A stretch of DNA of 64,000 nt, from IMG/VR virus record IMGVR_UViG_3300027974_001900, positions 1 to 64,000 of that record; one strand, 5' to 3'. Positions 1 through 17,518 of this stretch are shown here, one piece after another (positions within the stretch are counted from its first letter, which is position 1; every line of letters starts with the position of its first letter). Under the pieces are notes generated by a model, which was not told the origin of the DNA, did no database searches, and worked only from the letters and a program-made list of their open reading frames with translations. This DNA comes from a virus. The translations under genes were made by a program, and so were the position numbers.

Positions 1-1002
1 CTCCATTTCAAAATCATAAGGCGTATAAGTAAAGACAACTTTGATATTTTCTTTGTTTAATTCTGTTTTAATCCAGTTTGTAAATTTAAGCTCTGATTCA
101 AAGTTTATTAGCTGATCATTATATCTAACCGCCCAAGCACCTAATTTTGTTAAGATATCTACCTTATTCATAATAATAGAAGTAACTCCGTTCATTCTTG
201 CCGATCTTAACACAAGGCTCCAATCAAGCCAATTGACCTTTCTTTTTCTGTAGATAGTTACACCATATTCTTGTCCTTCTTCTACTATTCTTTCGAAGAT
301 TTCACCTTTTGGCTGAAAGTCTTTTTTACCATCATAAGTATCATAAGCCTTAATGACACCGTAAACATTTCGTAATTGTTTATAGTTAAATCCATTGAGA
401 AGAACAGAACCAACACTACAATGGCTTGATGTTACATAAGGATAGTCTCCCCAATCAATATCAAGGCCAAAAGCTTGTGCTCCCTCTGCTAATACAGCAA
501 AAGAACTATTATTTTGACTATAGAACTCCTCGTACATATCAATCAGATACGGTTTTAAAGCTTCTACACTTTCTGCGCGAATACCAATTCTTGAATATTT
601 ATCTTTATAACAAGGACCGTTACCTGTTTTTGTTGTACCAATATCCGTGTCTTTACCGTCTTCTTCTATGTGAGACGACTGAACTATGTGAGCATTTTTT
701 GCAACATAAACAAGACCTTCCGTATCAATTCCGTTTTCTTTTAGATAGGAAAGTTCTTTAAAGAAGTTATTTATATCTACAACACAACCTGGTCCTACAA
801 TTGACTTAACTCCAAAGAAAACGCCAGAAGGGATAAGATGTGTAGCCATCTTTTTACCTTCATGGTAAATCGTATGACCCGCATTTCCTCCACCATTAAA
901 TCTAATAACGTGAGTATATAATCCGTTTTTTAATAAACTATGACAAATTTTTCCTTTACCTTCATCTCCATAAGATAAACCCAAAACAACATCTAACTTC
1001 AT
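1..1002 (-). CDS. purA: Adenylosuccinate synthetase (PurA) family protein, short type, with altered aspartate-binding loop; 3' end runs off the window
   Basis: Not in the ORF track because there is no stop in the window. Hand translation from ATG 1002 (SD GGAG): MKLDVVLGLSYGDEGKGK...FNGGGNAGHT...HLIPSG...IGTTKTGNGP...EGAQA...YPYVTSS...KAYDTYDG...EYGVTIYRKRKVNWLD...NGVTSIIMNKVD. Confidence 0.93.
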   Translation of the reverse strand, partial: MKLDVVLGLSYGDEGKGKICHSLLKNGLYTHVIRFNGGGNAGHTIYHEGKKMATHLIPSGVFFGVKSIVGPGCVVDINNFFKELSYLKENGIDTEGLVYVAKNAHIVQSSHIEEDGKDTDIGTTKTGNGPCYKDKYSRIGIRAESVEALKPYLIDMYEEFYSQNNSSFAVLAEGAQAFGLDIDWGDYPYVTSSHCSVGSVLLNGFNYKQLRNVYGVIKAYDTYDGKKDFQPKGEIFERIVEEGQEYGVTIYRKRKVNWLDWSLVLRSARMNGVTSIIMNKVDILTKLGAWAVRYNDQLINFESELKFTNWIKTELNKENIKVVFTYTPYDFEME

Positions 1003-1011
1003 GCTTCTCCT

Positions 1012-1977
1012 TTAAATAAATTCTTTCTTTGCCACTAAAGCGAACTTTGGTAATTTATCACAACCAGCATAAGAAAGTCCACTCTTAATACCGCGAAGAA
1101 TTACGTCTACTGTTTCTGAAAGTGATTGTTCTTTCAGAGGAACAAGGATCTCTTTTCCCTCTGAAACAGAAACCCATCCTCTCCAATCTTTTTGAGCACT
1201 AGCTGATGCCATTCCTCTAAACTTTTTATAATGCGCATTATTGTGATTAATGATTTCACCTGGTGATTCTTTGTGACCTGAAAGCATAGAGCCTAACATA
1301 ACCATGTCAGCTCCACAGGCTAGAGCCTTAACAATATCTCCACTATCTCTGAACCCTCCGTCAGCAACCAAAATTGCATCTCTATCAGTTTTAGCACAAC
1401 GAATTACAGATTCTAATGTTGGCAGACCAAACCCTGTTTTATTTCTTGTTTCACACACGGTTCCACCAGAAACACCAACACGAATCAAATCTGCACCAGC
1501 ATCTGCCAAAAAATTAAAACCATTTAGGTCGGCAACATTACCAGCCATAATCAGTAAATTTTTGTCTTTGCGTTTTAGTAGTTTTATTGTTTCAGCTACA
1601 TTTAGATGAAATCCGTGTGCAACATCAATACAAAACAACCTACATCCAGCTTCGTATAACGCTTCAAATCTATCATAGTAATCCCCTGCTGCACCAACTG
1701 CACAAAAGATTCCAGTTTTATCTTGTACTTTTAGATACTCTCTTACTTGATCATTTATTGACATGTATCTGTGAAGAACTGCAGAGCTGCCAGATTGTCT
1801 CATAATATCAGCAACCTCTGCAGAAACAACAGTATCCATACAAGATGCTATAATAGGGGTTTTAATAGCAGCTTTTTCCAAGACTCTTGGAGTTAAGTCA
1901 ATAGAATGTCTTGTATTGATTTCACTATAACCAGGGACTAAATAAAGGTCATCAAAATTAACTACTTTTTTTTTCAT
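1012..1977 (-). CDS. IMP dehydrogenase / GMP reductase family, no CBS domains; GMP-reductase-like
   Basis: FDDLYLVP, PIIASCMDTV, IDVAHG, AGNVA, catalytic loop GVSGGTVCETR, ADGG, GADMVMLGSMLSG, RGMAS..SEG; short flap without the IMPDH Arg-Tyr dyad. Confidence 0.9.
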   Translation of the reverse strand: MKKKVVNFDDLYLVPGYSEINTRHSIDLTPRVLEKAAIKTPIIASCMDTVVSAEVADIMRQSGSSAVLHRYMSINDQVREYLKVQDKTGIFCAVGAAGDYYDRFEALYEAGCRLFCIDVAHGFHLNVAETIKLLKRKDKNLLIMAGNVADLNGFNFLADAGADLIRVGVSGGTVCETRNKTGFGLPTLESVIRCAKTDRDAILVADGGFRDSGDIVKALACGADMVMLGSMLSGHKESPGEIINHNNAHYKKFRGMASASAQKDWRGWVSVSEGKEILVPLKEQSLSETVDVILRGIKSGLSYAGCDKLPKFALVAKKEFI

Positions 1978-2237
1978 TATTCCTCGTGAATTTGGCCGAT
2001 TACTGCCGTTGATGGACAGATTTTAAACTTGTTCTTCTTGTATTCAAACTCTTGAATCATTGTAGAAATGACGATTACAGTATCGCCACTTACATATGTC
2101 TTTGTCTTCGGATCACTTGCAAGAACTTTTACAGCGGTTAAATCTCCACTTGTTTTTGCCCAAGCAAAGTTGCCATTAACTTCTTCTTCTTGCAATGTTT
2201 TAATATAAATGTATCCTTCTGCTGGTGTAAACTCCAT
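1977..2237 (-). CDS. GroES-like co-chaperonin
   Basis: 86 aa; FTPAEGYIYIK resembles the GroES N-terminal strand; GDTVIV and terminal AVIGQI match the GroES pattern. Confidence 0.6.
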   Translation of the reverse strand: MEFTPAEGYIYIKTLQEEEVNGNFAWAKTSGDLTAVKVLASDPKTKTYVSGDTVIVISTMIQEFEYKKNKFKICPSTAVIGQIHEE

Positions 2238-2479
2238 TAGTCCTCCTCTGACGGCATCATGTCAAACATTTCATTTAGTGAATCAATATCTGTCTTATCT
2301 TTACGAAGACGATAGGCTTTAAGTGCAGTCTTAATCTCTTCCTTGGTAAGCCACTTATTCTCCAAGTAAGATTTACGCAATTCTGCTTTCTGCTCTTTGT
2401 ACGGCTTCATTGCATCATCAAGTGCAGCGACAGACATAACATAATCAACAATCCGTTCTTCTTTTGATTTCTCGCTCAT
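2237..2479 (-). CDS. Small helical protein, T4 DsbA / DUF2312-like dsDNA-binding protein
   Basis: Start moved to ATG 2479 (MSEKSKEE; SD GAGG; downstream of promoter); coiled-coil followed by IKTALKAYRLRK. Confidence 0.5.
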   Translation of the reverse strand: MSEKSKEERIVDYVMSVAALDDAMKPYKEQKAELRKSYLENKWLTKEEIKTALKAYRLRKDKTDIDSLNEMFDMMPSEED

Positions 2480-2507
2480 TTTTTCCTCTCTGCCCCGTAA
2501 ATAAGAA

Positions 2508-2535
2508 GGGCTACAACGTTGAGACATTGTAGCCC
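2508..2535 (-). terminator. Hairpin overlapping a promoter; probable terminator of the 2561-2791 gene
   Basis: gggctacaa/ttgtagccc 9-bp stem followed on the minus strand by TTCTTATTT. Confidence 0.55.
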
Positions 2536-2815: not shown

Positions 2816-2823
2816 TAAATAGT
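2816..2823 (-). promoter_or_regulatory. Putative late promoter ACTATTTA
   Basis: Recurrent motif, 25 nt upstream of ATG 2791. Confidence 0.7.
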
Positions 2824-4679
2824 TATTTAATTTCGCAAGCGCCACCAGCACAAGCTAATTCTGCTTGCAGGTTGGTTTCATCATCTGTCTCAAAAATCTG
2901 AGATAAATCAACGTTTTTGAGTGATTCAAATAATCTATCAAAGGTTTCTTTATCACAATCTTCAAATGGAGCTTGCTTATAACTACCACCATCGTAAGGA
3001 AGAACACTTAGACCTGTATAAGAATCTCTATTCTCCCACATCCATTCACCAACTTCTTGCCACTCTTCTTGACGAACTGAAACCGTTGCAGAAACATTGT
3101 GAGTATTTTGACCTTTAATGTGTCCTGGTTTTACCCAGCGACCATGAATGTCCTTAACTCTTTCAAGCATTTCTAGGGCTGTTTCCGTTCGCATGGTGGC
3201 ACCTTCTGGAGCCTTCTGTGGCACAGAGATTACTGCTGTGTCATGTGGACGGAAGTATTCATCTTCAACAAGTTCAGGATGATTTTGGACAAGATATTTG
3301 TAGATTGCTTCATTCTTACCAACACGAATTCTACGAATGTAATAATCGTTATGCCAAGCATGAACACCACTAGAGGTTCCAAGGATTAAGCTTGTTGTGC
3401 CTGATGGCTTAACTGTTGTAACTCTTGCAGCCGGATTAACTCCAATTAGATTGGCAACTCTCTTATTCTCTTCAACGGCAACCTTTGCTGCTTTTTCCAT
3501 GTCTAGCTTCTGAACTTTGTTAGAAGCAATACCTGTCATTCCGATGCCTAATAGAGCTTCTTTCTCTGTTGTACGACGCCATACATCACGAAGATAATGG
3601 AAGTCAGTGTAAGATGCTTGTAGAGTACCTACAAACGCTGCTGCCTTAACTCTTGCCTCATAATCCTCTTGATCCTCTAGGTCGCTTACGTTGACCTCAC
3701 ATAAATTACAGAACTGATTACTGCGCAAAGCAATTTCTGCGCATGGATTAGTTCCCCATTCCTTATCATTAGTAAAGAAAATTCCTGGTTCACCTGCACC
3801 AGAGGACTTAATCCTCTCCCATAGATCTAAGAAGTATTCTTTCGTAACTCTATGGCGTAAAATCACAGCAGAGTTATTCGCTCTACCGCGTTGAGGTTGT
3901 GATTCCCACCAAGCACCTGACTTGGCTGAAATCATTTCATCGTCATCTGCGCTAAACAGAGCGATAAGAGCAGAACGTCTAATTCCACCTGCCAATACGG
4001 CATCTGCGATATGGCAGATAATGTCGTGAACTTCAATCGGCTGTAGTTTATCTCCATCTTCTTTAGCCTCCAGAATACCTTCTACTTTAATTAAACATTC
4101 TTTAAGAGGTTGCGGACCAGGAGCTTTACCACCGGCAGTTACAAGGCGAGCACCCTTTGGACGAATATCGCTGAAGTCAAAGATTACTTTCGATCCACCT
4201 TCAAAGTAAGACCTCATTAATGCTTTGATTGAATCTGCCCATCCTTCAATGCTATCGCCTACTAAGAAACGACGAGTTCTCTTGGAGTTTGGCTTGCGAA
4301 GCTCTGGTAGTTTCTCAACGTGATGCTTTTGAACTGAATAGCCAACGCCTGTTCCGCCAAGAAGGAGGAACATGATTTCATTAAATGCTCTTACGTCATC
4401 AACTGCTACGAATGAGCAGTTAAAGATTCTTGTTGGATTAACATCAATTGCTCTACCACCAAATTGCATTGATCTCATTGAGGGGAGAACTTTGCGATCA
4501 AATACAAACTGATATGCTGCTCTAATTTCTTGTTCTAATTGCGGATGCTTTTTAATATGCATCTCCATATTTCTTTTAACTGTATCTTCGTATTGTTCTC
4601 TTCTAAACTCATCTTTCATAAAGCGAGCATATTTCATGTGATGAGTAATATCGCTTAGAATTTTTTGTGAAACATCCAT
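2823..4679 (-). CDS. nrdJ: Class II (B12-dependent) ribonucleotide reductase
   Basis: RIFNCSF, GGIRRSA, TNPCAEI, NQFCNL, TTVKPSGT, C-terminal CAGGAC. Confidence 0.93.
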   Translation of the reverse strand: MDVSQKILSDITHHMKYARFMKDEFRREQYEDTVKRNMEMHIKKHPQLEQEIRAAYQFVFDRKVLPSMRSMQFGGRAIDVNPTRIFNCSFVAVDDVRAFNEIMFLLLGGTGVGYSVQKHHVEKLPELRKPNSKRTRRFLVGDSIEGWADSIKALMRSYFEGGSKVIFDFSDIRPKGARLVTAGGKAPGPQPLKECLIKVEGILEAKEDGDKLQPIEVHDIICHIADAVLAGGIRRSALIALFSADDDEMISAKSGAWWESQPQRGRANNSAVILRHRVTKEYFLDLWERIKSSGAGEPGIFFTNDKEWGTNPCAEIALRSNQFCNLCEVNVSDLEDQEDYEARVKAAAFVGTLQASYTDFHYLRDVWRRTTEKEALLGIGMTGIASNKVQKLDMEKAAKVAVEENKRVANLIGVNPAARVTTVKPSGTTSLILGTSSGVHAWHNDYYIRRIRVGKNEAIYKYLVQNHPELVEDEYFRPHDTAVISVPQKAPEGATMRTETALEMLERVKDIHGRWVKPGHIKGQNTHNVSATVSVRQEEWQEVGEWMWENRDSYTGLSVLPYDGGSYKQAPFEDCDKETFDRLFESLKNVDLSQIFETDDETNLQAELACAGGACEIK

Positions 4680-11473: not shown

Positions 11474-12298
11474 TTATTCTTGAATAATGTTGGTGTTTGA
11501 AATAATATAGACAAAGTTGGATTCGTAGTTTGTCGTTGTGATTTTGTACGAAATGTCCAACTCTGTACCAGAGTACGAATTTCTCGTCTGCTGTTGGATC
11601 AGTTTAATCAACTCTTTATTTGTTGTCAAGTCCTCTTGTTTAACTGCATAGAGAAAAACTTTCTGTCTTGCTGATGCCAAATTATAGAGGTAATTTTCTG
11701 TTCCATCTTCGACATTTAAAATGCCGACAGTAGAAATTCTGTCCACATCTCTTTCTGCTGACATCTTGCCAAAGACATCTTTTGCTGTCAACAGGTAGTT
11801 TACCATGTGAATTGTTGATACGATCACTTTGTTTAAACTATCATAGTATTCCATGATTGATAAACCGCCAAGCAAATTTTCTACTTGAGGATTTGAAATA
11901 AGAAGCATTTTTTTAAAGAGTCCGCTTCTTGTAAACTCTTGAAGGATACCAAAGATTGCTCTATCTTTTACTGCTATCTCTGTTGAAATTAAGTTTGGGT
12001 CTGGTCGAACATATAGAACAGTGATGTTTGTATGTTTTACTTGTTCAAGTATTCTAAGAGAAGCACCAGATATATTACCTCCACCGCATAAGACTAACAA
12101 GGTCTCGCCTTTTAGTTTTGTCAAAGGCTTAAATTCTGGTAGTTTTTCTTCATATTCTTCTATCGTTTTACAAGCTGGGATACTTAAACAGTTTTTACCT
12201 TTTAAACCAACATCAGCTTTAAAAACTTTATACTCTGGGTATTGAGAGAACAAGTCCGCTATTGCACAGCCACCTTTGCCAAGTCCTAGAATGTTCAT
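11474..12298 (-). CDS. Tubulin/FtsZ-superfamily GTPase (PhuZ/TubZ-like), divergent
   Basis: ILGLGKGGCAIAD (T1 loop), GGGNISG (variant of GGGTGSG), LISN, YYDSLNKVI. Confidence 0.72.
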   Translation of the reverse strand: MNILGLGKGGCAIADLFSQYPEYKVFKADVGLKGKNCLSIPACKTIEEYEEKLPEFKPLTKLKGETLLVLCGGGNISGASLRILEQVKHTNITVLYVRPDPNLISTEIAVKDRAIFGILQEFTRSGLFKKMLLISNPQVENLLGGLSIMEYYDSLNKVIVSTIHMVNYLLTAKDVFGKMSAERDVDRISTVGILNVEDGTENYLYNLASARQKVFLYAVKQEDLTTNKELIKLIQQQTRNSYSGTELDISYKITTTNYESNFVYIISNTNIIQE

Positions 12299-13473
12299 AG
12301 TTTTTTCATGTCTCCATAATTCTTACCAACTTTTTTAGTAATCATAAATTTACCAAAGTCAGTGTTTGCAAATGTATTACAAATATCTTTAACCAGATCT
12401 TTATCTTCTGTTGCTATATCTAGCACAATTGAATCGTGAACCAAAAACTTAATAAAAGATTTTTTATCTTTTAACAATTTATTTACTTTAATTGCTTGTC
12501 TCAAAAAACAATCAGAAGCTGTGCTTTGTAGAATATAATTGATTGCGTGCTCATTATCTGCCCTTATCTCTCTTCCATAGCAATTTTTAACAACACAGCC
12601 GTCATAATATTTGTCACGAACAACATTCTTGTCATAGAAGATCTTCACCTTCTTATCCTGCTGAGGGGGTAGTGTAGTAGTCCCCTTCTCATCGTACATC
12701 CAAGCAAGGAATCTCTTCTTAGCTCCATCACGATTTGTACCAATAAAAATGTTATCTTTATTCCATTCGTGGAGATCTGTATTTGGTTGTTTTTTTCCGT
12801 TTAAAGCAAGTAAGACTCTTGGTTCAAATGCGTTAAAGTCTAATTCCAACAAGAAATCATTGGTCGGTTCGACAATACAGCGAAGGTTCTTATTCATCGT
12901 AAGAATCGAGAAACTGTCATGGTCGGCAGATAAACGACCAGTTACGGTTCCAAACATATTATATTTAACTTTTTTCTTCATCTTGCTGGCACTGCGAATT
13001 TCTCCAATAGCAGGAAGATTCTTCATCTCAACTTTTACATCATTTTGAGATATTTCGTGCAGCATTTTATTAAGATTATAAAGAAATTCATAATTTTCCG
13101 GTCTTTTCTTTGTTTGGAAGATTTCATTCATTATTGCAGAACGAACTGAAAATAATTCATGAATGAAAGAAACCGGTACAAGATCAAAAAAGCAGTTCTC
13201 ATCAAGAGAGACTTGAGCTGTAATAAACGATTTCATGTACGCTCTTAGCTTTGAACGTATTAATAAATACCTTTCTCTCATTTCGTGAGAACAGGCATCT
13301 TCAATATTCTTTGTTCCAGCGTAAAGACAGGCAAGTTCATATTGCTTGTCACCCATGAGTGGGCTATAATCCCAGGAATGAGTCAAATTATCTACCGACG
13401 CAAACGGAACCACCTTTCCATCAACGTAGCAGGAATCGCAAATTTTCTTGGAATCAATTAGTTCAAAAATCAT
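12295..13473 (-). CDS. Compact family A DNA polymerase without a recognisable exonuclease domain
   Basis: TVTGRLS, motif A LDFNAFEPR, motif B RDGAKKRFLAWMY, AINYILQSTASD, motif C VHDSIV; start set at ATG 13473. Confidence 0.85.
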   Translation of the reverse strand: MIFELIDSKKICDSCYVDGKVVPFASVDNLTHSWDYSPLMGDKQYELACLYAGTKNIEDACSHEMRERYLLIRSKLRAYMKSFITAQVSLDENCFFDLVPVSFIHELFSVRSAIMNEIFQTKKRPENYEFLYNLNKMLHEISQNDVKVEMKNLPAIGEIRSASKMKKKVKYNMFGTVTGRLSADHDSFSILTMNKNLRCIVEPTNDFLLELDFNAFEPRVLLALNGKKQPNTDLHEWNKDNIFIGTNRDGAKKRFLAWMYDEKGTTTLPPQQDKKVKIFYDKNVVRDKYYDGCVVKNCYGREIRADNEHAINYILQSTASDCFLRQAIKVNKLLKDKKSFIKFLVHDSIVLDIATEDKDLVKDICNTFANTDFGKFMITKKVGKNYGDMKKL

Positions 13474-13479
13474 GACCAC

Positions 13480-13508
13480 ATCTTATGGCATCTTAGATTT
13501 CGTGTCAA
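13480..13508 (-). promoter_or_regulatory. sigma70-type promoter, probably giving a leaderless polA transcript
   Basis: TTGACA-17 nt-TAAGAT; the A of ATG 13473 is 7 nt after the -10 box. Confidence 0.75.
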
Positions 13509-14758
13509 GCTGGACCTTGAATTGGTCCTCCTTGTTTTATACTTCTTTCTCTGAAAGGTAATGTAGAAACATTATTATTGAATATAGAAATAGCTTCACA
13601 TACTGCCTTTTTAGTGTTTTCTTTGTACAGATCATCAAATCTTGACAAAGCAATTGAAGTATAGTATTCTAAATTTTGATCATTTATATTATCTCTTATT
13701 TCTATTTTTCTCATCTCAAAAAATAGTTTAATATAAAACTTATGCATTTCAGAAGTTGAAGAGAACATAGTAATTTTTGATTTTTCATTATTAACAGCTT
13801 TTGCATTTTCACATCTATCAAATTCTAGTTTCTTAAAAGTAGGAAATTGAAATGTAAAACTTTTATAAAAAGTTTCTAATGCAACAATAAATTCTCTATA
13901 ATAATCATAATCTTTTTCTTCTACCGGTATAACTCTTTCATAATAAACATCAAACAATTTTTGAAGATTATCTTTTAAATCTTCTGGTATAATTTTTAAT
14001 TTTGATGTTTTTGTTTCTTCTGCTATTTTTTCTGCAACCAACTTTTGTCGTATGTCGCAAGTTAATCTCCAAGGAATTTCTTTATTTAAAATAAAACCAT
14101 GTTTTAAACATAATTCTAAAAATGCAGAATAATTTATATCATTATAAAATTTTTCTTTTATAATTGAGTCAGAAGCATTACCTGAATAAACATCTAGTAC
14201 TAATCCCGTTTGTAAAGGAGAAAATTCTCTAGATTCTATGAATCCTGCTCTTGTAAAATAAAAATCTTTTTCAAAAAGAAAAATTTTTAATTCTTCTAAG
14301 AAGATTTCGTAATTATTTATTTTGTTTAAATAACCATCATTAACAATATAATCTAAAAATAAAGAATAGATGCTTTTTAATTTCTCTAAATAAAGAGGTC
14401 TTGAAGTTGTAAACCCAGCAACAGGAGATAATGTTTCTTTAAAAAATTGGCTTCTTTTACTAAGATTACCTTGTTTATAGTTTCTCTCATATTCTCTCTT
14501 TACATCTTTAAAAAGTTCTGCTACAAAGTCAAAAGCTTGAATCTGTTTAGGGTCTGTTGCAAATGTTGCAAATTTAAGTTTCTGTTCTCTTGGTATTACA
14601 GCATTACCTTTGGTATCCACCTTGCCATAAAATGGTTTATTGTACCAAGTATCAACATAATATTCTTCAAATAAATAATCATCCAATTTTCCTGTTGGAT
14701 TGGAATTTTCATTTAATGTTTTTCTAGCGTTAAACAAATTTTTAAATTTATTTGGCAT
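13505..14758 (-). CDS. Hypothetical protein, end of tail operon
   Basis: 417-aa ORF in operon; FYGKVD and HGFILNKEIPWRL motifs; no function recognised. Confidence 0.7.
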   Translation of the reverse strand: MPNKFKNLFNARKTLNENSNPTGKLDDYLFEEYYVDTWYNKPFYGKVDTKGNAVIPREQKLKFATFATDPKQIQAFDFVAELFKDVKREYERNYKQGNLSKRSQFFKETLSPVAGFTTSRPLYLEKLKSIYSLFLDYIVNDGYLNKINNYEIFLEELKIFLFEKDFYFTRAGFIESREFSPLQTGLVLDVYSGNASDSIIKEKFYNDINYSAFLELCLKHGFILNKEIPWRLTCDIRQKLVAEKIAEETKTSKLKIIPEDLKDNLQKLFDVYYERVIPVEEKDYDYYREFIVALETFYKSFTFQFPTFKKLEFDRCENAKAVNNEKSKITMFSSTSEMHKFYIKLFFEMRKIEIRDNINDQNLEYYTSIALSRFDDLYKENTKKAVCEAISIFNNNVSTLPFRERSIKQGGPIQGPA

Positions 14759-14773
14759 TTTCTATACCTTATA

Positions 14774-17518
14774 TTATTTTTTAGCGTTTTCTTTTTCACT
14801 ATAATCTTGTGGCTTCTTTACATTTGGCTCTTTAGGTTTATTTTTATTTCCTTTTGTTTTTTGTTTATTAGTATTAAGGCCAAAATTAGTTAAAGTCTTT
14901 ATGTCTGTTTTGATTAAAAGATCTATGTATGATGCTGGGTCGTAAGTATCTGCCGGTATATAATCTAATATTTGAGATAATTTTTGTCCCTTATTATCAT
15001 TTTCTGTAGTTGGTTTACCGTTTTTACCGTATCTTCCTCCCGACCAGAACCAATCTCCTGATACAACGCTTTTGTATGAGCCATTTGCATCAATAGAATC
15101 TTTTAGACCCTTTACTTTATAATACCCGACTATGCCTATGTCGTATTCTGATCCGGCTAGTCCAAGTGGAGGAGTTGGAATACAGATTATACTACCATGA
15201 TTAAAGATAGAACTTCCGAAAGTTTCCGCACTTAATGAGTACTGATAAAAGAAATAACTACTATTTTCATCTGTCATAGCCTGCAAAGCAATACCAGATC
15301 TAAGACCTTTAAGATCAATTTGCTGGAAATCAGCGCTCAAAAACATTCCACCGTCTGAGCCGATTATTAAATGAGGTATTCCGTTTTTTGCATCTTCTGC
15401 TTCATTTAATTGCAATTCTCTTGTATTAGAAACAGAAAAATTATTTGCTGTTGTCTCTTTTAAAGTTGAGATATTAAGTTTTGAATAAACAATTAGTGGT
15501 TCACTATTTTTATCATCGTAAAAGTTGTTTCTAATATTTGAAGCAAACTCTGCCATAAATGCAGAGTTTGGGTCTGTATGTTCTAAGAACCATTTTGAAT
15601 TAGTATTATTCCAAGTCTTCTTAATATAGAAAGAAGGATTAAAATCTTGTACTGTTATTCTAGTTGTATTCTGAGGATATGTTTTATTTCTATATAAAAC
15701 TTCTGGTACTAAATCATCTATTAGTTCTTTTACAAAGTGCCCAAAAGATATATCGACAAATCCTTTATTATAAAATTTATTATGCATCCATCTTTGAAAG
15801 TAGTTTAATTCTATCAAAATATTGCCAGCATTAATATTATATGTTTTATCATAAACTCTTGCAGTTAAATTTCCAAATAAGATTGTTGGAACATAAAGCT
15901 GCTCTTGATTAACTTCTTCATTTATCATTTGATAAGCGGCTCTTATGAGCGCTCTAAGTGGAAAGAAAACTATATGTCCACTTCTTTTATCAGAGTTTAT
16001 ATGCTCCCTCGGAGTGTTAAACAATCTGTTTAGGATACCCTCCATTTTATTTTTAACATTTTCTGGGATCGTATCTTTTCTAAAAAAATCATCTAATTTA
16101 TATTCTTTAGATGCTAGATCACAAAACTTAATTTCTCTGCCATCGTCAGGACTTATTAGATTTAAAGATGCGTTTAAAGAATAAGATTTTAACTTATCAT
16201 CTTTTTTAGTATTAAAAGAAATAGAATATAAATCAAAATTATTTTGTAATGTCTTAACAAAGACATCTTTAAAGTAAGGAACAAGTTGTCTCTTTACCAA
16301 AGATAAATTTTTAGAAATTTCGGTTTCTAAGTTACGAAGATTTTCTAATCTTTTCTTTTTTGTCTTTTGAAGATCTTCTATACTATCTTGACCTTTTTTA
16401 ACTTTCTCTGCGTCTTTAATTTGATACAATAAAAGATTTTCTATCTTTTCTTTTGTTTCTTCTAACTTTAATTTATTTTGATTATACTCAGATAGAAGAG
16501 TAACAGCACCGGCAGACTTTGCTTTTAATTCGTTTATTAATTGCTTATTTGAAGAAGAATCTGCTGGAATCGTTATGTTATTATCTGAATCTAAAAATGC
16601 TTCTGCTAAATTTACATAAGTAACAGATATGTCAACTCCGCCCTCTTTGTTAAACTTAAAATTATGAGAGGTCTTTAGTAGTCCAAATTTTTTAACTTCT
16701 CTAGTATTAATGTAATTACAAATTTTTAATGGTATCTGATGCTGGTGTTCTAACCCAGGGTCAACGTAATAACCATATTCCAATTTTAATACTTCTTTTT
16801 TTATTCCTATATTGGAAAACAACTTCATAAATGAGAAGCCATATTTTGGTTCTGGCTCTCCTTCTTTCGTCGGTATTTTTCTAGTTAGAATATTCATATT
16901 ACTAAAAAAATAACTTATAGAAATATTACAATTTTTCTTAGTTCCTAAATTAAACTGAATATCGTTTGTAACATTTTTTATACCACTCCCTTCCATAAAG
17001 GCATTTGGATTGGATAAAATTTTATCTAATTCAAAATATTGAGAGAACGGAAATTCTACGAATTTGAATTGTTCATTTTTATTTTTTGGATTATCTTTCC
17101 ATCCATAATATAATTTTACATAAGGTTGAATAAATGCCATTTGAAACGGTTTAATACCATTCATAAATAAAATGTAATCTTTTAAATCATCTCTATTACC
17201 CGCTGCAAGATGACCGGTAGAAATATTATTTTCTAAAATATCAGAATACTTTCCATTAAGAAAAACAAATTTCTCTTCATTTTTAAATTTGTTTTTATTG
17301 GCATTTAAAAATGCTTCAAATAATTTTTCTTTTTCCAAAATAGTTTTTATTGGTTCTGCTGAATTATCTATTATTTTTGAAAAATCGTTGTACAACAAAG
17401 AATAAGCAACACTTTCTTTGTTTCTCATTATTTGAGGCGTAATAAAATCGTTTAGCCACCCTTCTGGGTTTAGCTCGTTAAAAGGAAAAAATAAATTAAA
17501 CTCTTCTGTGTTTGCCAT
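14774..17518 (-). CDS. Large tail/baseplate hub-like protein
   Basis: 914 aa; follows LysM-like gene; LKLEYGY and C-terminal GYYKVKGLKDSI typical of hub proteins; inferred from position. Confidence 0.5.
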   Translation of the reverse strand: MANTEEFNLFFPFNELNPEGWLNDFITPQIMRNKESVAYSLLYNDFSKIIDNSAEPIKTILEKEKLFEAFLNANKNKFKNEEKFVFLNGKYSDILENNISTGHLAAGNRDDLKDYILFMNGIKPFQMAFIQPYVKLYYGWKDNPKNKNEQFKFVEFPFSQYFELDKILSNPNAFMEGSGIKNVTNDIQFNLGTKKNCNISISYFFSNMNILTRKIPTKEGEPEPKYGFSFMKLFSNIGIKKEVLKLEYGYYVDPGLEHQHQIPLKICNYINTREVKKFGLLKTSHNFKFNKEGGVDISVTYVNLAEAFLDSDNNITIPADSSSNKQLINELKAKSAGAVTLLSEYNQNKLKLEETKEKIENLLLYQIKDAEKVKKGQDSIEDLQKTKKKRLENLRNLETEISKNLSLVKRQLVPYFKDVFVKTLQNNFDLYSISFNTKKDDKLKSYSLNASLNLISPDDGREIKFCDLASKEYKLDDFFRKDTIPENVKNKMEGILNRLFNTPREHINSDKRSGHIVFFPLRALIRAAYQMINEEVNQEQLYVPTILFGNLTARVYDKTYNINAGNILIELNYFQRWMHNKFYNKGFVDISFGHFVKELIDDLVPEVLYRNKTYPQNTTRITVQDFNPSFYIKKTWNNTNSKWFLEHTDPNSAFMAEFASNIRNNFYDDKNSEPLIVYSKLNISTLKETTANNFSVSNTRELQLNEAEDAKNGIPHLIIGSDGGMFLSADFQQIDLKGLRSGIALQAMTDENSSYFFYQYSLSAETFGSSIFNHGSIICIPTPPLGLAGSEYDIGIVGYYKVKGLKDSIDANGSYKSVVSGDWFWSGGRYGKNGKPTTENDNKGQKLSQILDYIPADTYDPASYIDLLIKTDIKTLTNFGLNTNKQKTKGNKNKPKEPNVKKPQDYSEKENAKK

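Follow-up and report, generated by a model that had tools for sequence, protein, structure and literature searches.

The stretch of DNA analysed here, which we call the window, is the first 64 kb (positions 1 to 64,000) of IMG/VR virus record IMGVR_UViG_3300027974_001900, a linear sequence of 117,360 bp with an estimated completeness of ~64%. Genes for a RecA/UvsX-like protein, gp32, a PolA fragment and a T4 baseplate protein give it a myovirus-like character. GC content across the window ranges from 0.26 to 0.41, a simple call of open reading frames (ORFs) places 108 of 112 on the minus strand, and near-identical sequence is contained in the freshwater metagenomes of several studies. The gene of interest lies at the extreme end of the record, where positions 1..1002 of the minus strand, with an ATG at 1002, encode a 334-residue, short-form homologue of the adenylosuccinate synthetase PurA (PF00709, E 8.9e-80). 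The start of this gene lies 9 nucleotides downstream of the end of a GuaC-like gene (1012..1977, minus strand), whose product is a member of the IMPDH/GMPR family of the guanosine monophosphate (GMP) reductase type. We describe here how the amine-binding site of the PurA homologue departs from that of its relatives, and what this departure may mean for its chemistry.

The PurA ORF runs off base 1 of the window, which is also base 1 of the 117,360-bp record. Eleven relatives from its own subclade (described below) are 334-345 residues long and end in ...DFEME or ...DFDME, and one of them lies on a 173,010-bp contig. Because full-length relatives of 334 residues share this C-terminus, the coding sequence in the window is complete and the stop codon alone is missing; a truncated gene could thus be rejected. 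The protein belongs to the adenylosuccinate synthetase superfamily. It scores 268.9 bits against PF00709 (cut-off 27), and is the single PF00709 protein found by profile search in the 117-kb record. Its AlphaFold2 (AF2) model (pLDDT 90.2, pTM 0.90) yielded 43 Foldseek matches in the PDB at E <= 0.001, with PurA or PurZ at every place above rank 44; the best structural matches were 9f17 (TMq 0.86) and the short Pyrococcus horikoshii enzyme 5k7x (TM 0.83 in both directions). Scores against the NCBIfam PurA equivalog models fall below their cut-offs (NF002223, 259.7 versus 402; TIGR00184, 241.9 versus 395.55; NF003295, 173.1 versus 368), a shortfall that may reflect the short viral form of PurA in general, since the scores are those of the window protein and not of its canonical viral relatives.

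Every motif that the first-pass annotation of this DNA had listed is present in the ORF: YGDEGKGK, GNAGHT, IGTTKTGNGP, LAEGAQ, YPYVTSSH, MNKVD, KAYDTYDG and EYGVTIYRKRKVNWLD. Residues were mapped by alignment with the annotated PurA of Salmonella (L082), and we take E. coli mature numbering to be the Salmonella position minus 1, to allow for the initiator Met. The P-loop G12-D13-E14-G15-K16-G17-K18 (949..969, minus strand, as for all features of this gene) retains the catalytic Asp13, and the catalytic His is found in NAGHT. The base-recognition motif N279-K280-V281-D282 (157..168) is of the GTP type, NKxD, with N279, K280 and D282 invariant in the family alignment. Also invariant (mature numbering) are K16, N38, H41, T129, R143, Q224, T239, S240, R303 and R305, among them the IMP-site (inosine monophosphate) residues N38, T129, R143, Q224, T239 and R303, while D13, K331 and D333 are nearly so. 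The roles assigned to these residues are those known from the E. coli enzyme, in which R143 is contributed by the partner subunit.

The aspartate site is a different matter. Where solved PurAs, in HMMER alignments, carry the canonical 'kayttrvg' and 'eygtttgrprrvgwld', the window protein has a GAT codon for Asp224 (331..333) at the position of E. coli Val273, and a rebuilt loop, V248-T249-I250-Y251-R252-K253-R254-K255 (238..261), opposite A299-T300-T301-G302-R303-R304-R305-R306. The Salmonella alignment reproduces the mapping first made by eye, in which D13, T271, T300, R303 and R305 are kept and V273, T301 and G302 are replaced by D224, I250 and Y251. Further replacements relative to Salmonella are A299->V248, R304->K and R306->K255, whereas S270->D and R272->Y are common to the whole viral family and not particular to this gene. 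Val273, Thr300 and Thr301 are the determinants of L-aspartate recognition in PurA, and only T300 survives here. By this comparison the protein departs from aspartate-dependent PurAs in the one family feature that concerns the amine substrate. An intact 6-phosphorylation machinery combined with a selectively rewritten aspartate loop had been suggested at the outset, and the conserved catalytic, IMP and GTP residues bear this out.

The family in question comprises short (~330-350 residues) PurA homologues from aquatic viruses and metagenomes. A word-indexed search of a 5.8-billion-cluster collection returned 7,746 matches for the window PurA, and related loci numbered 327 (confirmed) in IMG/VR and at least 571 in a metagenome scan. 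Three sets were used for comparison: an alignment of the query with its 120 best matches (121 rows); 160 fetched related loci, 80 of them viral (of the 327) and 80 metagenomic (of the at least 571); and 150 representatives, taken from 50% clusters spanning viral, archaeal-type and bacterial PurAs. The two aspartate-site segments read KxY[D/E/S]TYVG and E[F/Y/W]G[A/S/T]TTGR in 117 of the 121 rows, all 117 carrying Val at 273, and the combination of KAYDTYDG with EYGVT[I/F/L]YRKRK occurs only in the query, P0001, P0002 and P0003. V273 and T300/T301 are present in 160 of 160 related loci and G302 in 159; all 80 metagenomic loci are canonical, the contig of P0002 not being among the matches listed. 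Among the representatives, 125 have V at position 273, 13 have S, 4 have L or I and none has D; position 301 is T in 138 and a gap in 6; and position 302 is G in 128, K in 6 and N in 5, with K, N, M, H, Q and D together accounting for 16. Asp at 273 is thus absent from the 117 other family members, the 160 loci and the 150 representatives, and the same holds for Ile, Phe or Leu at 301. Judged from these alignments, the loop changes go well beyond chance.

The variant sequences form a subclade of 12 distinct members in three 90% clusters, defined by V273D, A299V, T301I/F/L, G302Y and Q306K (E. coli numbering). KAYDTYDG is present in 12 of 12 and EYGVT[I/F/L]YRKRK in all 11 that are full-length; the members are mutually 75-77% identical and retain all catalytic, IMP-site and GTP-site residues. 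Co-occurrence of the D273/I301/Y302-type changes within one clade, which the first-pass annotation had proposed looking for, is therefore what the alignment contains. A protein search restricted to residues 212-262 found no members beyond P0001-P0003, a search in the shorter length class found none, and a DNA pattern for KAYDTYDG matched no other IMG/VR viral contig. Across 185,579 species genomes the pattern KAY[D/E]TYDG gave 8 matches (~17 expected by chance), none of them PurA by tblastn and all in unrelated contexts. Departures of another kind occur elsewhere in the superfamily. Other viral short-PurA subclades (P0065, P0066, P0080-P0082, P0091 and others) carry GDSGKG, GDCGKG or GDEAKG in the P-loop with a canonical aspartate loop, and among the 150 representatives 18 have C and 7 have S at position 14. 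P0203, a 365-residue homologue with Glu at 273, Ser at 301 and the degenerate P-loop YEEKEKTK, looks inactivated or repurposed.

In a 64-row tree (the query and P0001-P0064, minus the 286-residue P0052), the subclade's four rows are monophyletic (SH-aLRT 99) and fall within the canonical viral PurAs, and support was unchanged once 25 motif columns had been deleted. The 117 canonical relatives have 148 columns that are at least 80% conserved, and the subclade altered six of these: V224D, A248V, T250[I/F/L], G251Y, Q255K and S325T. The two aspartate-loop segments hold 19 of the conserved columns and five of the six changes (hypergeometric p = 1.2e-4). Independent contigs that stem from other studies or sequencing runs match the gene exactly over the motif codons (250-261, 331-333): X3 record 2 covers 79-499, X5 record 11 covers 130-316 and X20 covers 244-415. 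Together with the 12 distinct subclade sequences, these contigs rule out an assembly artefact.

Divergence in PurA is about three times that in NrdJ or DnaB between the window and its closest syntenic relative, L002, which has a canonical pocket. The canonical pair L003-L004 diverges alike, so the low PurA identity is no sign of acceleration across the whole protein, and accelerated evolution of the entire enzyme was set aside as unsupported. The remodelling of the loop in this superfamily member, whose IMP and GTP sites are intact, is specific to the clade and took place under constraint. The substitution pattern points to a functional gene in which rebuilding was confined, in essence, to the amine site, and to a rewritten pocket that is real, clade-specific and selected.

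These data bear directly on the possibility that the ligase reaction has been lost, leaving a decaying or repurposed copy that still binds IMP and GTP (as a GTPase, an IMP 6-kinase draining nucleotide pools, or a regulator or sensor) and makes no N6 product. Such a loss would be in keeping with the disappearance of two near-universal family residues from the amine site, and with the rarity of the variant (three 90% clusters, 0 of 160 loci, 0 other IMG/VR contigs and 0 real matches in the species genomes). Against this, members that differ from one another at about a quarter of their residues retain 67 of 70 invariant columns, the exceptions being exactly 224, 250 and 251. The new residues are themselves conserved, with D and Y invariant and 301 always hydrophobic, and the reading frame is intact in 11 of 11 full-length members. 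Of the 14 nucleotide differences listed for PurA, 12 are synonymous (a further 88, across a 2-kb stretch, lie outside this listing); one of the synonymous changes is TAC->TAT in the Tyr251 codon itself, in a strain ~95% identical. Finally, X20 is a 172-nucleotide contig from a lake metatranscriptome and is identical to the gene over the rebuilt loop, although DNA carry-over is possible. We regard loss of the ligase reaction as improbable.

Comparison with described systems helps to show which of the changes matter. Bacterial PurA (E. coli/Salmonella, ~431 residues; 1ADE, 1CG0) has the same fold as the window protein (Foldseek E 1e-22 to 1e-26, TMq 0.76-0.86) and the same P-loop Asp13, catalytic His, IMP-site residues and NKxD motif. 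The window protein differs in lacking the bacterial insert of ~45 residues after residue 145 and ~40 C-terminal residues, and in the aspartate loop by V273D, A299V, T301I and G302Y. The short archaeal PurA of P. horikoshii (337-339 residues; 5K7X, 2D7U; NF003295) is equally compact and aligns in a single stretch (residues 5-287, positions 1-296 of the 337-position model), but identity is ~31% and the 173-bit score lies below the cut-off of 368. By its title, 5K7X is a complex with hadacidin, presumably a ligand of the aspartate site. The canonical short PurAs of aquatic viruses (L002, P0004-P0120) are 52-71% identical to the window protein, of the same length, and share the family-wide KAY[D/E]TY; they read ...TYVG and E[F/Y]G[A/S]TTGR[K/P]RQ where the window clade reads ...TYDG and EYGVT[I/F/L]YRKRK. 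These canonical viral enzymes and the short archaeal PurAs are its nearest described kin. Literature searches found no biochemical study of the canonical viral short PurAs.

PurZ and PurZ0 of the Z-genome phages (6FM1, 7ODX, 7VF6) are likewise phage-encoded short PurA homologues with altered substrate choice, and share the fold (TMq 0.74-0.79). The PurZ of phage Bm1 reads GSTGKG, with Ser in place of Asp13, and PurZ keeps V273 and T301; the window protein keeps Asp13 and changes both of the others. Published surveys give Ser at this position in 100% of 147 phage PurZ sequences (PMC12884076) and 'without exception' (PMC8515928), and PurZ acts on dGMP, with aspartate still used (PMC12884076). 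Against the NCBIfam PurZ model the window protein scores 105.5 bits, where the cut-off is 300. Profile searches of the 117-kb record gave no match for HD (PF01966), MazG (PF03819) or lyase (PF00206, PurB) proteins, and the dATP/dGTP hydrolases that accompany PurZ were not seen, a weak absence in a record that is ~64% complete. Identity as PurZ or PurZ0 can be dismissed on the retained Asp13, the GTP-type NKVD and the score below the PurZ cut-off, together with the lack of HD and MazG matches in this incomplete record, and the initial claim that the protein is distinct from PurZ stands on the first and third of these.

The same comparison separates informative from uninformative positions. Helicobacter pylori PurA reads 'tttkr' and PurZ 'TVTKR'; V273 and T301 are kept in them while positions 300 and 302 vary, and both are described as aspartate users. 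Because aspartate-using comparators keep V273 and T301 and vary at T300 and G302, V273D and the change of T301 to a hydrophobic residue are the informative ones. G302Y, listed with them in the first-pass annotation, is a weak marker, as Lys takes that position in H. pylori PurA and also in PurZ.

The GuaC-like neighbour encodes 321 residues without the CBS insert (PF00478, E 1.2e-76, 258.4 bits; best solved relative 3r2g, E 2.7e-71). It has the IMPDH/GMPR barrel, a catalytic Cys loop ('ggtvcetr') and gaps opposite the IMPDH 'ssdryf' flap. Absence of this Arg-Tyr flap segment distinguishes GMP reductases from IMPDH. Full-length matches to the NCBIfam GMP reductase models nevertheless stay below their cut-offs (NF003966, 203.3 versus 344; NF003470, 202.2 versus 397). 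Further upstream lie genes for DnaB, a FEN-type exonuclease and NrdJ, a class II (B12-dependent) ribonucleotide reductase of the RTPR type (2823..4679, minus strand). NrdJ matches TIGR02505 with E 2.4e-82 and 277 bits, under the cut-off of 340, and also matches PF02867 and PF21995.

The pairing of PurA with the reductase-like gene and NrdJ had been read as evidence of a new pathway, and this part of the original argument does not hold. L002 is 92% identical to the window in DnaB, 89% in NrdJ, 83% in GuaC and 68% in PurA, and its genes are arranged alike: NrdJ and DnaB upstream, then a 96-residue ORF, an ORF of 86/89 residues, GuaC, and a PurA with a canonical pocket. A GuaC-like gene also stands in the fetched flanks of 35 of the 80 related viral loci with canonical PurA. 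Because canonical-pocket L002 shares the GuaC and NrdJ neighbours, the PurA/GuaC pairing is ancestral and silent on a new pathway. The GuaC-like genes of the window and of L002 (7026-7991) are a divergent subtype, 41-46% identical to those beside other viral PurAs. They depart from the other 38 sequences at 26 of 119 columns (at least 90% conserved), and the catalytic loop GVSGGTVCETR is among the parts affected. As this subtype is common to L002 with its canonical PurA, co-variation of GuaC with the PurA change was ruled out.

The window contig ends at PurA, and in L002 no lyase, kinase or dNTPase was seen among the genes that follow it. Those genes include a PHROG 'DNA binding protein' and, directly after PurA (L002 9005-9391), a 128-residue protein with a sub-threshold TauD/2OG-dioxygenase hint (17.8 bits, cut-off 27). 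Aquatic viruses widely carry the PurA and GMP-reductase module, which is present in 35 of 80 IMG/VR loci. Literature searches found no paper describing it, and passages of a related preprint refer to phage PurA without naming a GMP reductase.

In the wider viral family, the two enzymes would act as a module converting G to A nucleotides for an AT-rich genome: the GuaC-like enzyme would take GMP to IMP, PurA would join IMP with aspartate at the expense of GTP to give adenylosuccinate, and host PurB would complete the route to AMP. Going by the family assignments of its two members, such a converter is most plausibly what the ancestral module was, and is the simplest reading of it. The window gene, co-transcribed behind the GMP-reductase-type gene, would have as its product a dimeric PurA-family enzyme that is active and depends on GTP. 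In its subclade the first half-reaction would be unchanged, with Asp13 and His assisting transfer of the GTP gamma-phosphate to O6 of IMP. This step depends on Asp13 and the catalytic His, on the P-loop Lys and on the sites for IMP and GTP.

The site that places the attacking amine, on the other hand, has been rebuilt by V273D, A299V, T301I/F/L, G302Y and Q306K, and we propose that a smaller or differently charged amine, rather than L-aspartate, displaces the 6-phosphate. Ammonium would be the leading candidate. The new Asp, next to the new Tyr, could bind and deprotonate it to yield AMP in one step and with no need of a lyase, much as an Asp binds ammonium and serves as base in glutamine synthetase. 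The NH3 released by the GMP-reductase reaction is a candidate source. We put at roughly 45% the probability that the enzyme forms 6-phosphoryl-IMP with GTP and then uses a nucleophile other than L-aspartate, ammonium being our leading guess. We infer the loss of aspartate use, the new amine and the product, and an orientation of Asp224 and Tyr251 towards the amine site is predicted.

Mutational work on the E. coli enzyme points the same way. In a 2002 study in J Biol Chem, Gorrell and colleagues reportedly found that T301A abolishes aspartate-supported but not hydroxylamine-supported catalysis, that V273 mutants raise the Km for aspartate 15-40-fold, and that V273 and T300 shape aspartate recognition. 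A small amine can indeed replace aspartate in this chemistry, since the E. coli synthetase is described as making N6-hydroxy-AMP from IMP and hydroxylamine (PMC12026682).

Several points weigh against a change of amine donor. The site may still accept a carboxylate ligand, because it retains Arg303, Arg305 and Thr300, which help to hold the carboxylates of aspartate or hadacidin. Position 302 is tolerant, as its variation in H. pylori PurA, PurZ and 16 of the 150 representatives illustrates. The gain of Asp224 is matched by a gain of Lys255, and the pair could be a structural rearrangement. The aspartate loop is the lower-confidence part of the AF2 model (pLDDT 79-88). The sister lineage combines a normal pocket with the same GuaC and NrdJ neighbours, so these neighbours are no separate pointer to a new product. 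The wild-type synthetase is not known to use ammonia.

Much of this would be expected if the protein were an ordinary aspartate-dependent adenylosuccinate synthetase. The changes in the loop would then compensate one another (Asp224 pairing with Lys255, for instance, while Tyr251 and Ile250 repack), aspartate would be held by backbone amides together with T300, R303 and R305, and the module would work as in canonical relatives. The retention of these three residues, the variation of positions 300 and 302 in aspartate users, a gene context identical to that of canonical L002 and the ~3-fold PurA divergence in both pairs, which gives no strong sign of a burst across the whole protein, are all compatible with such an enzyme. 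It is harder to reconcile with the replacement of both T301 and V273, which every aspartate-using comparator examined retains, and with the reported loss of aspartate-supported catalysis in the T301A mutant of E. coli PurA. An acidic residue at 273 is also otherwise confined, among the 150 representatives, to one Glu in a protein with a degenerate P-loop, and the concentration of five of the six clade-defining changes in the loop looks like a specificity shift and not drift. On balance we consider continued aspartate use less probable than a change of donor, but a serious alternative.

A larger neutral or basic amine, such as another amino acid or a diamine, might instead be coupled to IMP or dIMP, and the resulting N6-substituted adenylate could pass through kinases and NrdJ to give DNA with hypermodified adenine. 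A cationic or aliphatic side chain could fit well with D224, Y251 and a hydrophobic residue at 301, R303 is retained and could go on binding an alpha-carboxylate, and a triphosphate-level reductase (NrdJ) is encoded 0.8 kb upstream. The same NrdJ, however, stands beside a canonical PurA in L002, and the accessory genes of base replacement (HD, MazG, lyase) gave 0 matches in the 117-kb, ~64% complete record. This outcome seems to us a long shot.

If the preferred reading, a nucleophile other than L-aspartate, is right, the protein may be the first member of the PurA superfamily to use such a donor, either as an ammonium-dependent IMP-to-AMP ligase or as the synthase of an N6-substituted adenylate that could reach DNA, a proposal that we advance tentatively. 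To our knowledge, PurA chemistry is regarded as fixed on L-aspartate, and PurZ, the only departure known from phages, has altered its nucleotide substrate and not its amine. With ammonium as nucleophile, the enzyme would provide a new and shorter route to AMP that bypasses adenylosuccinate lyase. Natural selection appears to have rebuilt the amine site while preserving all else, and the subclade thereby offers a natural experiment on how specificity is encoded in the PurA fold. Should the enzyme turn out to be a normal PurA, the finding shrinks to an unusual, tolerated loop variant.

Two further small ORFs accompany the PurA/GuaC module on the minus strand, and neither has a Pfam or PHROG match. 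The first, of 86 residues (1977..2237), overlaps the GuaC start by 1 nucleotide and has a 37% identical counterpart in L002. The second, of 96 residues (2237..2527), has tblastn matches near 17 of the 80 related viral loci; these copies near PurA/GuaC are 30-79% identical, and the protein could serve the module as a conserved partner or as a regulator.

Elsewhere in the window, the family-A DNA polymerase may be split or highly divergent: a 394-residue ORF (12295-13479, minus strand) matches the C-terminal part of DNA_pol_A only over residues 307-371, and the 417- and 914-residue ORFs beside it (13505-17518) have no Pfam match. Past the window, at ~78,643-95,494 of the record, this phage contig carries a large glycan-biosynthesis island with genes for a GDP-mannose 4,6-dehydratase, DegT-type aminotransferases, an epimerase, a sugar C-methyltransferase, NeuB, a cytidylyltransferase, a B12-binding radical-SAM protein and at least 5 glycosyltransferases. 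The record beyond the window also encodes a ClpP-type protease (L165:16239-16889) and, at 97,690-99,042, a PhoH-like ATPase with a fused N-terminal PIN domain.

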